In this document: piece after piece, positions 1 through 30,905 of the stretch | Layout: each line of letters starts with the position of its first letter | How positions within the stretch are numbered: the stretch's first letter is position 1 | Source of the DNA: an uncultured Alphaproteobacteria bacterium | GTDB taxonomy: Bacteria > Bacteroidota > Ignavibacteria > Palsa-1295 | NCBI GenBank assembly: GCA_964404255.1 | Contig: CAYOJJ010000001.1 | Span: 243,639-307,638 of the forward strand | Reading direction: 5' to 3' | Length of the DNA: 64,000 bases | Notes under the pieces: generated by a model | What the model saw: the letters and a program-made list of their open reading frames with translations, nothing else | Database searches by the model: none | Told to the model about the DNA's origin: nothing | Program-made: the position numbers and the translations under genes

Positions 1-775
1 GTGCCTTGTATTGGTTGAAGGAAAGATCATTCGCTCGCAGGTATTATTTCATTTCGATCAAAGTACCGGCAAAATGGAAGGTAATTGGGGCAATGACGAT
101 AACCCCGGTGAGACGCGCGGCATTGCCGACGAGCGGTGGGTCTATATGCGCGAGCGCTTTACTATCGGCGGAGAAAGTAAAGCTTCCATTGAAGTGTACT
201 CCGATATTGGTAAATTCCTCGAGCCATTCTTCAGGGGTTTGCCGGTAACGATTGCCGTCAGCGGTGCACAGAATTCTATTGCCTACTATGCCGATTTTAA
301 CCGCGTAGTAAATGTCTTCGGTCTTACCGATAAACATATCGCTATGCAGGCCGTCACCAAGCGCGGCCGCATCGGCCATGAAAAGAAAGCCTCGAATGAA
401 TACCTTGCCGATGCCGGGGTACATTACTACCTGTATAATATTCGTGAAGAGCCGCCGAAGCCGCTGGCTTGGGATATGGCGGTATTCGGGCTTACTCCGT
501 TTAATCTTTTCCTAAGCGCGCGGGTAGTTAATTATGACAAGGCAATAACTACCGAACTGGAAAAGCGGTTTGCTGCGGCAGGAGTGCCCATCTCCTTACA
601 GCATTACGATGAGGTCCTGCAGAATTACCTGACGAATATTATGCCGACCCTCACACTCGCTCAGGCTGAAGAGAATTACACGCGCTTCAAGAGTTTATAC
701 TTCCGCAACCATCCCGATCCAAGCGCCGAGCAGAAGATGAAGGACTATATTGCCCAGAAAAAACAAACTCCCTAA
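1..775 (+). CDS. 5'-truncated CDS (runs off window start): C-terminal soluble domain paralogous to the C-terminus of the GT-C-like membrane protein at 775-2679
   Basis: The frame is open from position 2 with no stop before the window edge. The TTG at 11 is only an ORF-caller start. 'GIADERWVYMRERF...PFFRGLP...GAQN.IAYYA.F...GLTD..IA.Q...RGRIGHEK' is near-identical to residues ~400-634 of the next gene ('GIADERWVYMRKRL...'). The stop TAA overlaps the next ATG (TAATG). Confidence 0.6.
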   Translation, partial: CLVLVEGKIIRSQVLFHFDQSTGKMEGNWGNDDNPGETRGIADERWVYMRERFTIGGESKASIEVYSDIGKFLEPFFRGLPVTIAVSGAQNSIAYYADFNRVVNVFGLTDKHIAMQAVTKRGRIGHEKKASNEYLADAGVHYYLYNIREEPPKPLAWDMAVFGLTPFNLFLSARVVNYDKAITTELEKRFAAAGVPISLQHYDEVLQNYLTNIMPTLTLAQAEENYTRFKSLYFRNHPDPSAEQKMKDYIAQKKQTP

Positions 776-2679
776 TGGCATCGCAACGCAAAAAACAAGC
801 GCCGGTAAAAAAAGAACCAGCCACCGCCAGATCTTCTTCGATCTATTTTTATATTGGCGCGCTGGCCTCCCTGGTGATGGGATTGTATCATGCTATTAAA
901 CTGAGTTGGGTTTGTGACGATGCCTTCATTACTTTCCGCTATGTAAAAAATTTTGTAGATGGTAATGGCATCGTCTATAATATCGGAGAGCGGGTTGAAG
1001 GCTATACCCATTTTCTGTGGTTGCTTATTCTTTCAGGCTGTCAATGGCTTGGCTTCGAGCAGGTGAATGCCAGTATGGTGGTCGGTATTATCTGCTTTGC
1101 AATTCTTCTGGTTCTCTATATTGCTATTTCTGCAAAAGAAGCCCGCAGCAAGGCATCGCTTACCATCGCTTTACCGCTTGCCGCTTTACTACTATCGTTG
1201 AATTATGATATGAATGTATGGGCAAGCGGAGGACTTGAGACAAGCCTTTATACGCTTCTGCTCTCATCAGCCTTTTATGTCTGGTTCTATTCGAATCTCT
1301 CACGGCCGTTAAAACTCATGGGCGTTGGAAAGCTCCTGACGCTTGCAACATTATCACGGCCCGAGGGTGCGCTTTTTATTATACTTGCCGTAGCGCTGCT
1401 TGCCATTTATGAGTTAAGACGTAAGCACGCTCTCTCTTCGCTTATTAAAGATCTCGGGCTGATGGTGCTGCCAGTAATTGTGATCGGTATTCCATATCTT
1501 CTATGGAAGTATAATTACTATGGCGATCTGCTTCCGAATACCTTTTATACAAAGAGCGCCGGTAGTTCGTATTTCGGTCAGGGGTTCTTTTATATCTGGC
1601 TATTCTTCCGGGTATATTTCACCTGTGGAATTGCGCTACTGGCTCTCGGTGTATATTCTCTGTATCGGCGAAACAAGCATTCGGGAGTAACGACTGGACT
1701 GCCTTCCGGTTCGCCGGTCATTACCGCTATCACTGCTATTACAGTTTATCTTATTTTGTATGTAGCGCAGGTCGGCGGCGATTTCATGTTTGCCCGCTTT
1801 ATCATTCCGATACTGCCGTTGATGTATTACCTCATCGAGCGCGGAATGTGGCAATTGACACAGGAGCGCAAAGCACTCGGCCTTTCACTTTCGGCACTCT
1901 TGCTGCTTGCACTTATCGGCGAAGATCATCTGCGCGAGAATGTGCTTCTTCACGTGGATGCGAAGAGCGGTGAGCAGATGGGTAATTGGGACGATAAAGG
2001 CGGCGGAGAAACGCATGGTATTGCCGACGAGCGGTGGGTCTATATGCGAAAGCGGCTGAATCTCAATGGAGTCGAACGAAGCTCGATGGATGCCTATTCT
2101 GAGATCGGACAATTCTATGAGCCGTTCTTTCGAGGCTTGCCGATCACCATTGAAATCAATGGCGCCCAGAATATGATCGCCTATTACGCCAATTTCCGAA
2201 CAGTGATCAATGAGTACGGACTTACCGATTCTTTCATCGCGCATCAGCCTATCAACCTGCGCGGTAGGATCGGCCATGAAAAGACTGCGCCGGATTCGTA
2301 CCTCGTCAAGCGGGGTGTTCAATTTCAGCTTTTCGGTATTGCACCGAAAAAACCCGATCAGATCTCTTACGACATGGTCGTCTTCGAATTACCGTATGGG
2401 TTATTTCAGGTCGCGCGTATGATCACCTACGACAAGGAAGTAATGGCTGAAGTCCAGAAGCGGTTTAATGCTGCCGGGTTGCATCCGATCATTCCGCATT
2501 ATGAGCGCATTCTGCCAAAATACGTCCGCGATATTATGCCGAAACTGCCGCTCGAACAAGTTGTCAACGATTATGGCGGCTTCAAACAACTATATCTAAA
2601 CCGCTATAAAGACACTGCTTCCGAACATGCTATTCAGGAGTATATAGAGAAAAAACAGAAACAAACACAAGTGAAATAA
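775..2679 (+). CDS. Polytopic membrane protein, GT-C-fold glycosyltransferase-like (DD motif after TM1), with a ~250 aa C-terminal soluble domain
   Basis: 634 aa with at least 10 hydrophobic helices in the N-terminal ~370 aa. 'SWVCDDAFITFRYVKNFVDGNGIVYNIGERVEGYTHFLWLLIL' follows the first TM. 'LSRPEGALF' and 'DLLPNTFYTKSAG' are shared with the paralog at 29355-30905. The C-terminal domain is shared with the upstream partial gene. Confidence 0.7.
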   Translation: MASQRKKQAPVKKEPATARSSSIYFYIGALASLVMGLYHAIKLSWVCDDAFITFRYVKNFVDGNGIVYNIGERVEGYTHFLWLLILSGCQWLGFEQVNASMVVGIICFAILLVLYIAISAKEARSKASLTIALPLAALLLSLNYDMNVWASGGLETSLYTLLLSSAFYVWFYSNLSRPLKLMGVGKLLTLATLSRPEGALFIILAVALLAIYELRRKHALSSLIKDLGLMVLPVIVIGIPYLLWKYNYYGDLLPNTFYTKSAGSSYFGQGFFYIWLFFRVYFTCGIALLALGVYSLYRRNKHSGVTTGLPSGSPVITAITAITVYLILYVAQVGGDFMFARFIIPILPLMYYLIERGMWQLTQERKALGLSLSALLLLALIGEDHLRENVLLHVDAKSGEQMGNWDDKGGGETHGIADERWVYMRKRLNLNGVERSSMDAYSEIGQFYEPFFRGLPITIEINGAQNMIAYYANFRTVINEYGLTDSFIAHQPINLRGRIGHEKTAPDSYLVKRGVQFQLFGIAPKKPDQISYDMVVFELPYGLFQVARMITYDKEVMAEVQKRFNAAGLHPIIPHYERILPKYVRDIMPKLPLEQVVNDYGGFKQLYLNRYKDTASEHAIQEYIEKKQKQTQVK

Positions 2680-5719: not shown

Positions 5720-7267
5720 TTATTGATACAGATCATTAAGCAACTGCTTTATGATTCTCTTTTGCTCGGGGGTAATGAGATAAAGAGCATTCAAGCTACT
5801 CGTTTTAATAGGGCTGAGACTATACGTTTGTCGATAGGCATCTATTAATTCACTCGAGGAAAGAAGATACAATTCTTCGGAGGCAAATACACTATCGGCC
5901 GGATAGCTAAAGGTGTTGATCTCTTTCCAATAATAGCCCATGTGCTCTTTATCGTAGGATAAGAACCGGGCATATTTATAACGCGGCTGCAATTCCTGCA
6001 TACATCTGGCGATCGAAGGCTCCGTCGAAGGATCGATCAGCACCATAGCGCTATCGTTGCGAATGCTCTGTATCAGTTTCATCGCGTCTTCCATCTCGGC
6101 TTCACCAGCTCTTAAACGTGCATTTGTCGATGAAAGGGTGGAAACAAGACGTAATGCAGCAGTTCGGATGCGTTCGCTGCTTGTACGATTAGCTTTTGCA
6201 AAGCTCGATTCTACCGGTAGTTGATAATAAGGGACGAAAAGAAAAAGCAGCAGGCTTACCACCGCAATGCTGCTAATTGTGCGAGAGGCATTGCGATAAT
6301 TGCTTACGATTGCTCGCACCGCTATCAATAGATAAGCCGGTGCAATAAGAAGAATATATCCCTTGGCATAATGCCGAAAGACGAAAAACAGGATAGCCGG
6401 TATAACCCAAATAAGTAGGGTTATCCATTGGCTTCGAATCGAGCGAACGGTTGCCGATGGCTTATAAAGTAAGAACCCGATCGAAGGCAAAACCACCCAC
6501 AATGCTATGCTCGCAAGGGTGGCAATATTTTGAGCAATGGTAGAATCGACCGTCGTAGTATCTACGAACAATAGCCAGTATGCTTTCCAACTGCCAACAG
6601 AATAGACCAGTGGCAATAACCAGATACACCAGCCAAGCACAAATGCAGCTACCACTATGCTACCGCTGCCCACATTCAGCTTCAGCTCGATTTTCCTCTT
6701 CCATAAGAGCCACAAGACCAATGGCAACAAGAAGACAATCGAGGACGGGCGAATACCGCCTGCAAGTCCGAGCAGCAATGCACCTACTGGCAAGCTTCGC
6801 TTAGTAATGGAATAAAAGGTATTAAAAATAACGAGCGAGCATGCAGCATCATACACATACATTTCACCCGTACATCCCTGATACATAAATACCGGGCAGG
6901 CCGCTAATAACAGCATCGCATACAGGCTCCCCTCAGCGCCCCATAATAACCGATAGGTTTTCCCAATGGCTGAAACCGCTATCATCATAAATATGGTATT
7001 GATGATCAGCAACGCTGTATGAGGCGATATGGGCAGTAACCGATAAAGGATATTCCATAGCAGAACGAGAATGGGATAGCCGGGAGAATGCGGCCGATAG
7101 TTACTCAGATCGAAACCATATCGAAGCGTTTGGCAGAAGTTGGCTGCATCCATAGTGGTCACGACCTTTTCTCCGAATAAAAGAACGATGGCGATTGGAG
7201 ATAGAATAACCAGCCACCTGAGCAGAGAGCGATCGGAGAATCTATTTTCTATGGAGTTCTCTTTCAC
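5720..7267 (-). CDS. Polytopic membrane protein, PMT/ArnT-like GT-C glycosyltransferase family (GT39/83-like) with C-terminal soluble domain
   Basis: 515 aa. The N-terminal ~350 aa are multi-TM with 'LRYGFDLSNYRPHSPGYPILVLLW'. The hydrophilic C-terminal ~150 aa are distinct from the 775-2679 family. Confidence 0.5.
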   Translation of the reverse strand: MKENSIENRFSDRSLLRWLVILSPIAIVLLFGEKVVTTMDAANFCQTLRYGFDLSNYRPHSPGYPILVLLWNILYRLLPISPHTALLIINTIFMMIAVSAIGKTYRLLWGAEGSLYAMLLLAACPVFMYQGCTGEMYVYDAACSLVIFNTFYSITKRSLPVGALLLGLAGGIRPSSIVFLLPLVLWLLWKRKIELKLNVGSGSIVVAAFVLGWCIWLLPLVYSVGSWKAYWLLFVDTTTVDSTIAQNIATLASIALWVVLPSIGFLLYKPSATVRSIRSQWITLLIWVIPAILFFVFRHYAKGYILLIAPAYLLIAVRAIVSNYRNASRTISSIAVVSLLLFLFVPYYQLPVESSFAKANRTSSERIRTAALRLVSTLSSTNARLRAGEAEMEDAMKLIQSIRNDSAMVLIDPSTEPSIARCMQELQPRYKYARFLSYDKEHMGYYWKEINTFSYPADSVFASEELYLLSSSELIDAYRQTYSLSPIKTSSLNALYLITPEQKRIIKQLLNDLYQ

Positions 7268-29354: not shown

Positions 29355-30905
29355 CTACGGATTTCGCTCATAGATCTCAAAGACGCCTTCGGTACTTATA
29401 TAATGGTACTGCTCTCTGAAGTGATTATCTGCCTGCAGTTGCGTATTATAATTATCCGTTGAAGATGCAGCTAGTGTTGCCGCTTCATTACAACTGGCGC
29501 TAAGCAGCAGCACATAATTAGGACGTTTATCTATAACATATTCTGCATCGAATGTTTTGCCGGCCTTTCGGTCGCGGGCGATCTTTTTATCCATTAGTCC
29601 ATTTAGATCGAGTAACCTAATCGAAGGATTTCGAAAACCGATCAACCCTGCCTCACCGGTTGCCACCACCGCTGTATCATGGATATGCTCTTTTACCCAG
29701 CTTGCAGCAGCTTCATGATCGATCGTCGAATGACCGATGATCCTCGAGAATCCTGTTTCCATTGATAGGTGCTGACCGCGAAGCGTTACCCGTTCGATAA
29801 AAATAGTACAGAGGGAAAGAAACACACAGATAGTCATGGCAAGCACGGGCCGTGCAAAGAACCTTGTCCCGCCCCGAAACCTGAAAAAGAAGGAGCGAAG
29901 CCCGATAGTACTAAGTATAATGAGTATCGGGGCAATAGGAATAAGAAAGCGAAAGCCCGGCATCCAATCGCCACTCGAGTAGATAGTAAATACCGAAGCG
30001 GTACCAATGAATAATAAGCAGCTCACCAAAAAGCGGTGTCGATAGGTCGGCTCCGTAAATGAGAACGGTATCACAAATAATAATGGCCCGCATAAGCCAC
30101 CAAAACAGGCAAGCAAATACTTGAATCCTAAGATATAGGCTTTTATACCGCCGCCTGTTTTGGCGTAGAACGTATTAGGCAACAGATCGTGGTAGAGCGA
30201 CCATCTCCAGGTAATAAGTATTACCATAAGCAATAGATACGGGAGGAAGCAGTATCGTATCATTCTCAGTTTTTTTCCTGAAAGAATAAAGAGATATGCC
30301 ATAATGATGAGAGCAAATAGGGGCGCTTCGGGACGAACATAAGATGCGAGACCAAAAAATACTGCGAGGGAAAGATAATAACCGGGAGGAACAAGTTCTT
30401 TCGTTACTAATTGTTCGAGGATATAAGCGATCGATAAATAGAAGAAGGCGACCATTGTCATTTCCAATGCTCCGCAGCTCCAGAGGATAAAGGCCGAGCA
30501 CGAAGAGAGCGAGAGCACGGCAAGGGAGGCGTAAACCGTCTGATATAGGTCGCCGCGAAATAACCTTCTTGTGAAGATGAATAGTAGTACAATAGTCGCT
30601 AATCCAAAGAAATAGCTAAGGCCTTTTGCAGCCCAGAGCAGCCCTGCCTCACTTCGGGCGAGACCGGTATATTTTATTGCGGCGATCAATACTACCCACA
30701 AGGGATCGGAAAAACCTTCCACATATTCACCCGCATTATAGACAAACCCATTTCCCGAGGCGACATTATCGGCTACCCGCAGGGAAATAAAAATATCGTC
30801 AACTCCGAAGTTTATATAGTCGATCGTTTGTATCACGATCAATACACTGCTTAACCCCAGAAGAAGGACGACAAGCACGGACCGAGCCTTCCATTGAACC
30901 TTCAT
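29355..30905 (-). CDS. Polytopic membrane protein, GT-C-like, paralog of 775-2679
   Basis: 'GVDDIFISLRVADNVASGNGFVYNAGEYVEGFSDPLWVVLIA', 'RPEAPLF' and 'DLLPNTFYAKTGG' align with the 775-2679 motifs. The C-terminal soluble domain is distantly similar. Confidence 0.7.
   Translation of the reverse strand: MKVQWKARSVLVVLLLGLSSVLIVIQTIDYINFGVDDIFISLRVADNVASGNGFVYNAGEYVEGFSDPLWVVLIAAIKYTGLARSEAGLLWAAKGLSYFFGLATIVLLFIFTRRLFRGDLYQTVYASLAVLSLSSCSAFILWSCGALEMTMVAFFYLSIAYILEQLVTKELVPPGYYLSLAVFFGLASYVRPEAPLFALIIMAYLFILSGKKLRMIRYCFLPYLLLMVILITWRWSLYHDLLPNTFYAKTGGGIKAYILGFKYLLACFGGLCGPLLFVIPFSFTEPTYRHRFLVSCLLFIGTASVFTIYSSGDWMPGFRFLIPIAPILIILSTIGLRSFFFRFRGGTRFFARPVLAMTICVFLSLCTIFIERVTLRGQHLSMETGFSRIIGHSTIDHEAAASWVKEHIHDTAVVATGEAGLIGFRNPSIRLLDLNGLMDKKIARDRKAGKTFDAEYVIDKRPNYVLLLSASCNEAATLAASSTDNYNTQLQADNHFREQYHYISTEGVFEIYERNP

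Follow-up and report, generated by a model that had tools for sequence, protein, structure and literature searches.

What are the three hypothetical membrane proteins encoded in this 64,000-nucleotide stretch of DNA (hereafter, the window) from an uncultured bacterium of Kapabacteria type, two of them in tandem at its start and a third some distance downstream? An initial sequence-only reading had taken them for GT-C-type glycosyltransferases and had grouped them with a fourth membrane protein and with genes of sugar-phosphate and undecaprenyl metabolism into an O-mannosylation-like or surface-glycan module. Our analysis indicates that the three, designated A, B and C, are probably paralogous inner-membrane glycosyltransferases of class GT-C_A, which form an uncharacterised family distantly related (ca. 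20% identity) to AftB, the terminal beta-(1->2)-arabinofuranosyltransferase of Mycobacterium and Corynebacterineae (PDB 9dlf and 9dlh; NCBIfam NF041481). For the window itself, this result is an ordinary annotation that turns three hypothetical proteins into AftB-like GT-C glycosyltransferases.

Gene A (1..775, forward strand) is present as its 3' part only, which encodes the C-terminal 257 residues, corresponding to the predicted periplasmic cap domain, of a 627-residue AftB-like GT-C protein; the rest lies upstream of the window. The gene is cut solely by the window edge: P0022, a full-length database protein of 627 residues whose 451 kb contig also carries B, matches the fragment at 100% identity over its residues 371-627. 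Full-length A carries the motifs DD, GGLE, RPD and GGDFMFAR. Gene B (775..2679, forward strand) encodes a complete AftB-like protein of 634 residues, with a transmembrane (TM) domain at about residues 1-391 and a predicted periplasmic cap at about residues 392-634. Over 248 residues, the A fragment (2-775) and the C-terminus of B share 48% identity (E = 1e-82), and all the sequence blocks from which a tandem duplication had been proposed, namely GIADERWVYMRERF in A and GIADERWVYMRKRL in B, PFFRGLP, GAQNxIAYYAxF and RGRIGHEK, are found in the translations; A and B are tandem paralogs. The TAA stop codon of A (773-775) shares a base with the ATG start codon of B (775-777) in a TAATG overlap, and the two genes are probably co-transcribed and translationally coupled.

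Gene C (29355..30905, reverse strand) encodes a shorter AftB-like paralog of 516 residues, with a TM domain as in B and a cap that consists of lobe 1 alone. It had been described as a third copy, and it is one, although a more distant paralog: BLASTP aligns B and C with 29% identity over 225 residues (E = 1e-23), whereas profile-profile comparison of the two families by hhalign extends over 450 columns (E = 4e-66). All the motifs proposed to be common to B and C (DDxFIxxR, GNGxVYNxGExVEG, RPExxLF and DLLPNTFYxK) are present. When the C-terminal domains are compared alone, hhalign returns a 93.7% probability (E = 1.9e-7), and C retains the lobe 1 part of the B-type domain. The similarities among A, B and C are all far beyond chance.

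The assignment to the GT-C superfamily had relied on a DD motif just after the first TM helix, and it is borne out for all three proteins. Their polytopic membrane core comprises a conserved N-terminal module of seven TM helices and, within the first periplasmic loop, two juxtamembrane helices, the features by which class GT-C_A is recognised. The predicted catalytic pair of B, D48-D49 (916..921, forward strand), lies where juxtamembrane helix 1 begins, and that of C, D36-D37 (30795..30800, reverse strand), follows TM1; both align to D61-D62 of the AftB structure (McAftB). Lack of the motif in homologs had been named beforehand as a possible refutation. It is kept in 66 B-type homologs, with D48 unchanged throughout and conservation of D49 at 90% or more, and in 60 C-type homologs. 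AlphaFold models with pLDDT values of 92 and 94 match GT-C structures; the AF2 model of C (pLDDT 94.3) has AftB as its best Foldseek match. A transporter was also considered and rejected: the strong structural matches are all GT-C enzymes, and transporters appear just at TM-scores of about 0.1.

AftB is the only solved structure that B and C reach by sequence. Searched against the PDB, B gives AftB as the sole meaningful sequence match (E = 2.5e-15 with the single sequence and 3.5e-37 with a 66-sequence profile), and C likewise gives AftB as its sole match (E = 9.7e-6). B and AftB are of similar length (634 versus about 670 residues), and the seven catalytic and donor-site residues D61, D62, T91, E172, R221, T274 and R372 of McAftB correspond to the identical residues D48, D49, T78, E155, R195, T256 and R341 of B, each of which shows full invariance or at least 90% conservation among the 66 homologs. 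The roles of these residues in McAftB have been described, D62 being essential, and AftB is so far the sole structurally characterised retaining GT-C enzyme (PMC12041299). The resemblance nevertheless has limits. Identity to B is about 20-22%, and the full-length TM-score against AftB is just 0.57-0.61. The NCBIfam AftB model NF041481 covers the TM domain alone and yields 58.3 bits for B (E = 3.8e-16) and 30.3 bits for C (E = 1.1e-7), against a curated equivalog cut-off of 1050 bits. Because these scores fall so far under the cut-off (58 versus 1050), the function of AftB is not transferable, and as judged by sequence A, B and C are not AftB orthologs. We know of no arabinogalactan or LAM made by the diderm FCB-group hosts.

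Alternatively, the three proteins could be protein O-glycosyltransferases of the PMT type, with mannose or a different hexose passing from polyprenyl-phosphate to Ser or Thr residues of secreted or envelope proteins, as in the O-mannosylation-like function first proposed. That proposal found no specific support, the closest relative by sequence being AftB and not PMT or ArnT, and we regard it as very unlikely. Pfam assigns no family to A or C and detects in B PMT_2 alone, at a sub-threshold 17.8 bits versus a cut-off of 26.1; neither a PMT nor a MIR family is found. Alignments to PMT structures span ca. 340 TM residues at 8-9% identity, whereas the alignment of B to AftB takes in 451 residues at 22% identity, cap residues included; Foldseek returns PMTs at E-values of 0.15 or worse and AftB at 4e-11. 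Compared with Pmt1/2/4 (GT39) and ArnT (GT83), the A/B/C family shows no significant sequence similarity and no MIR domain, and its soluble domain is unlike theirs and lies at the C-terminus.

The cap itself bears on the same choice. It had been considered not placeable in any named family, but at least lobe 1 corresponds to the AftB periplasmic cap, and the blocks conserved in this domain fall on residues of the AftB acceptor site. A first cap helix D-E-R-x-x-Y and a loop G-R-I-G-H-(D/E)-K are common to B and AftB. The DERWVY segment of B, D418-Y423 (2026..2043, forward strand), which is part of the GIADERWVY block, lies in the first cap helix and is placed by profile alignment on D444-Y449 of McAftB, and the cap loop RGRIGHEK, R496-K503 (2260..2283, forward strand), on G559-K565 (GRIGHDK). 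Y423, R498 and H501 of B thereby align to Y449, R560 and H563 of AftB, whereas AftB F448 aligns to V422. Of these acceptor-site residues of McAftB, F448 and Y449 are essential, and R560 and H563 are proposed to contact the acceptor. Within the B family, E419, G500, H501 and E502 are invariant and D418 is at least 90% conserved (66 homologs). The AftB residues on which the cap motifs fall have a proposed role in binding an oligosaccharide acceptor, and this also speaks against PMT-type enzymes. Lobe 2 is built otherwise, from a three-stranded sheet and four helices in B versus seven helices in AftB, and C lacks it together with the DERW-Y and GRIGHEK motifs. With lobe 2 and both motifs missing, the acceptor of C probably differs from that of B and is perhaps smaller or membrane-proximal.

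By analogy with AftB, a mechanism can be proposed for these GT-C proteins. The positively charged N-terminus would stay in the cytoplasm, and about eleven TM helices would accommodate a polyprenyl-phosphate-linked monosaccharide whose head group occupies a cavity at the periplasmic face. In B, R195, R341 and T78 would bind the donor phosphate, E155 and T256 would contact the sugar, and D48-D49 at the tip of juxtamembrane helix 1 would perform the chemistry. The C-terminal cap is expected to close over the cavity and to present the acceptor by means of the DERWxY helix and the GRIGHEK loop. Most likely this acceptor is not a protein but an envelope glycan, extended at its non-reducing end, and A and B probably form different linkages or act on successive acceptors.

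Which sugar might be transferred? AftB itself takes arabinofuranose from decaprenyl-phospho-arabinofuranose (DPA) and caps arabinan with beta-(1->2)-Araf. The proteins could likewise be arabinofuranosyltransferases proper that use polyprenyl-phospho-D-arabinofuranose, or another pentofuranose donor (e.g. ribofuranose), to build or cap a pentofuranose envelope glycan in these Gram-negative bacteria. B has the same residues as AftB at the sugar-ring contacts (E172 and T274), at the phosphate ligands and at the DD pair, and the family conserves them throughout; JGI pipelines already label several homologs 'arabinofuranosyltransferase'. Addition of lipid-linked pentofuranose by GT-C enzymes is also known in Gram-negative bacteria (PMC11127046; TfpW). 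At ca. 20% identity, however, donor specificity is not reliably conserved. Moreover, no DPPRS/PPPRS phosphoribosyl-transferase, DprE1/E2-type epimerase or MATE/SMR flippase is found in the 64 kb window, nor does any of these DPA-pathway or flippase genes recur as a neighbour at 79 related loci. We therefore consider a pentofuranose donor possible but unlikely.

More generally, the window has no gene for donor synthesis or a flippase in the vicinity of A, B or C. Across relatives, no recurrent neighbour emerged from five Pfam-annotated contigs or from all-against-all clustering of 978 ORFs at the 79 loci, and a count of Pfam families over the 211 ORFs lying no more than 1.5 kb from a family gene showed no recurrent donor-synthesis or flippase family among the 25 commonest families listed, a scope in which a UbiA or MatE gene that occurred once would go unnoticed. 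In one narrow Bacteroidetes clade, a GT2 gene lies immediately downstream whose product resembles GtrB/ArnC, that is, polyprenyl-phosphate hexose synthases, which argues against pentofuranose, and a STELLO-like gene is a neighbour as well. A tblastn search with this GT2 found no match in the window. As clues to the donor, the GT2 and STELLO-like neighbours were set aside: they come from a single narrow clade whose GT2 copies are >91% identical and thus amount to one observation.

This arrangement invites comparison with three-component systems, i.e. the Gtr systems (GtrA/GtrB/GT-C) and the Citrobacter youngae pentofuranose system, which consists of PPPRS, a MATE flippase and a GT136 GT-C enzyme (PMC11127046). 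As in these systems, the GT-C protein would decorate a finished glycan at the periplasmic face from a polyprenyl-monophosphate sugar, and the Bacteroidetes clade has its GtrB/ArnC-like GT2 directly downstream. By contrast, the GT-C gene is solitary both in the window and at most related loci: no synthase or flippase adjoins A, B or C, and just one narrow clade among the 79 loci has an adjacent GT2. GT136 is described as closest to ArnT and as bearing a beta-rich CBM instead of an AftB-type cap (PMC11127046).

Could A, B and C instead belong, together with a fourth membrane protein, D, to a dedicated glycan module in which a nearby phosphohexomutase and uppS specifically supply sugar phosphate and lipid carrier? 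Gene D (5720..7267, reverse strand) encodes a near-orphan polytopic membrane protein, with just four database homologs, that falls outside the A/B/C family. Its description as a fourth, distinct PMT/ArnT-like protein held at the borderline for GT-C-like features (Pfam PMT_2 at 25.8 versus a cut-off of 26.1). D has no BLASTP similarity to B, hhalign aligns it to the B family at a probability of only 33%, and it matches nothing in the PDB by sequence or by profile. D is divergent from and adjoins the mutase, which is followed by uppS; the 7 bp gap reported between D and the mutase applies with the longest-ORF start codons (GTG 7267 and TTG 7275) and not otherwise.

The two closest relatives (loci L008 and L016) each have a B-type gene 2-5 kb away from the same pair of genes, mutase and uppS, with FloA in between. 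These are the only cases, and the other 77 of the 79 loci show no such adjacency. D is missing from the syntenic site in both relatives, FloA and an unrelated lipoprotein gene separate mutase and uppS from B, and C, at a distance of 26 kb, is surrounded by unrelated genes. For the mutase, the best-scoring model is archaeal-type GlmM (423 bits, just short of the 439-bit cut-off). The uppS-bamA order is a housekeeping arrangement, and UppS, BamA and BacA serve general envelope housekeeping. The proposed link of A-D to mutase and uppS found no support, and a dedicated module appears highly improbable.

The AftB-like family is widespread. Among species-representative genomes it was found in at least 553 stretches, and among clusters at 50% identity in 507; it spans Ignavibacteriota/Kapabacteria, Bacteroidota, Eisenbacteria, Zixibacteria, Planctomycetota and Leptospirales. 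Throughout the 507 clusters the cap domain is always C-terminal, in proteins of ca. 560-650 residues. The genes usually stand alone and are often duplicated, and adjacent duplicates recur in other lineages. One distant C-type homolog adjoins Wzy, Wzz, flippase and GT2 polysaccharide genes. The family suggests that many uncultured diderm lineages make an envelope glycan that is so far uncharacterised.

To our knowledge, AftB, which we take to be CAZy family GT89, has been studied solely as a tuberculosis cell-wall target. A literature search for non-actinobacterial AftB homologs, GT89 and the Leptospira proteins LA_3751/LA_3752 found no characterisation. With its AftB catalytic and donor-site residues and its cap motifs, the large family offers a comparative set for separating catalytic from substrate-specific residues. 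A further, speculative suggestion, which we think rather improbable, is that FCB-group and planctomycete bacteria make an unrecognised envelope glycan to which AftB-type, possibly retaining GT-C enzymes add terminal or branching lipid-linked pentofuranose (e.g. D-arabinofuranose), with the recurrent duplications, here A/B and the short-cap C, representing successive linkage-specific steps. Were this true, mycobacterial-style arabinan chemistry would extend well outside Actinobacteria.

The Leptospira LA_3751/LA_3752 family (NCBIfam NF047440) also shows weak matches to the TM core of B (E = 1.7e-6) and C (E = 1.1e-6), although at 27.1 and 27.8 bits, respectively, against a subfamily cut-off of 200, B and C are not members. 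The consecutive locus numbers of LA_3751 and LA_3752 suggest an adjacent gene pair.

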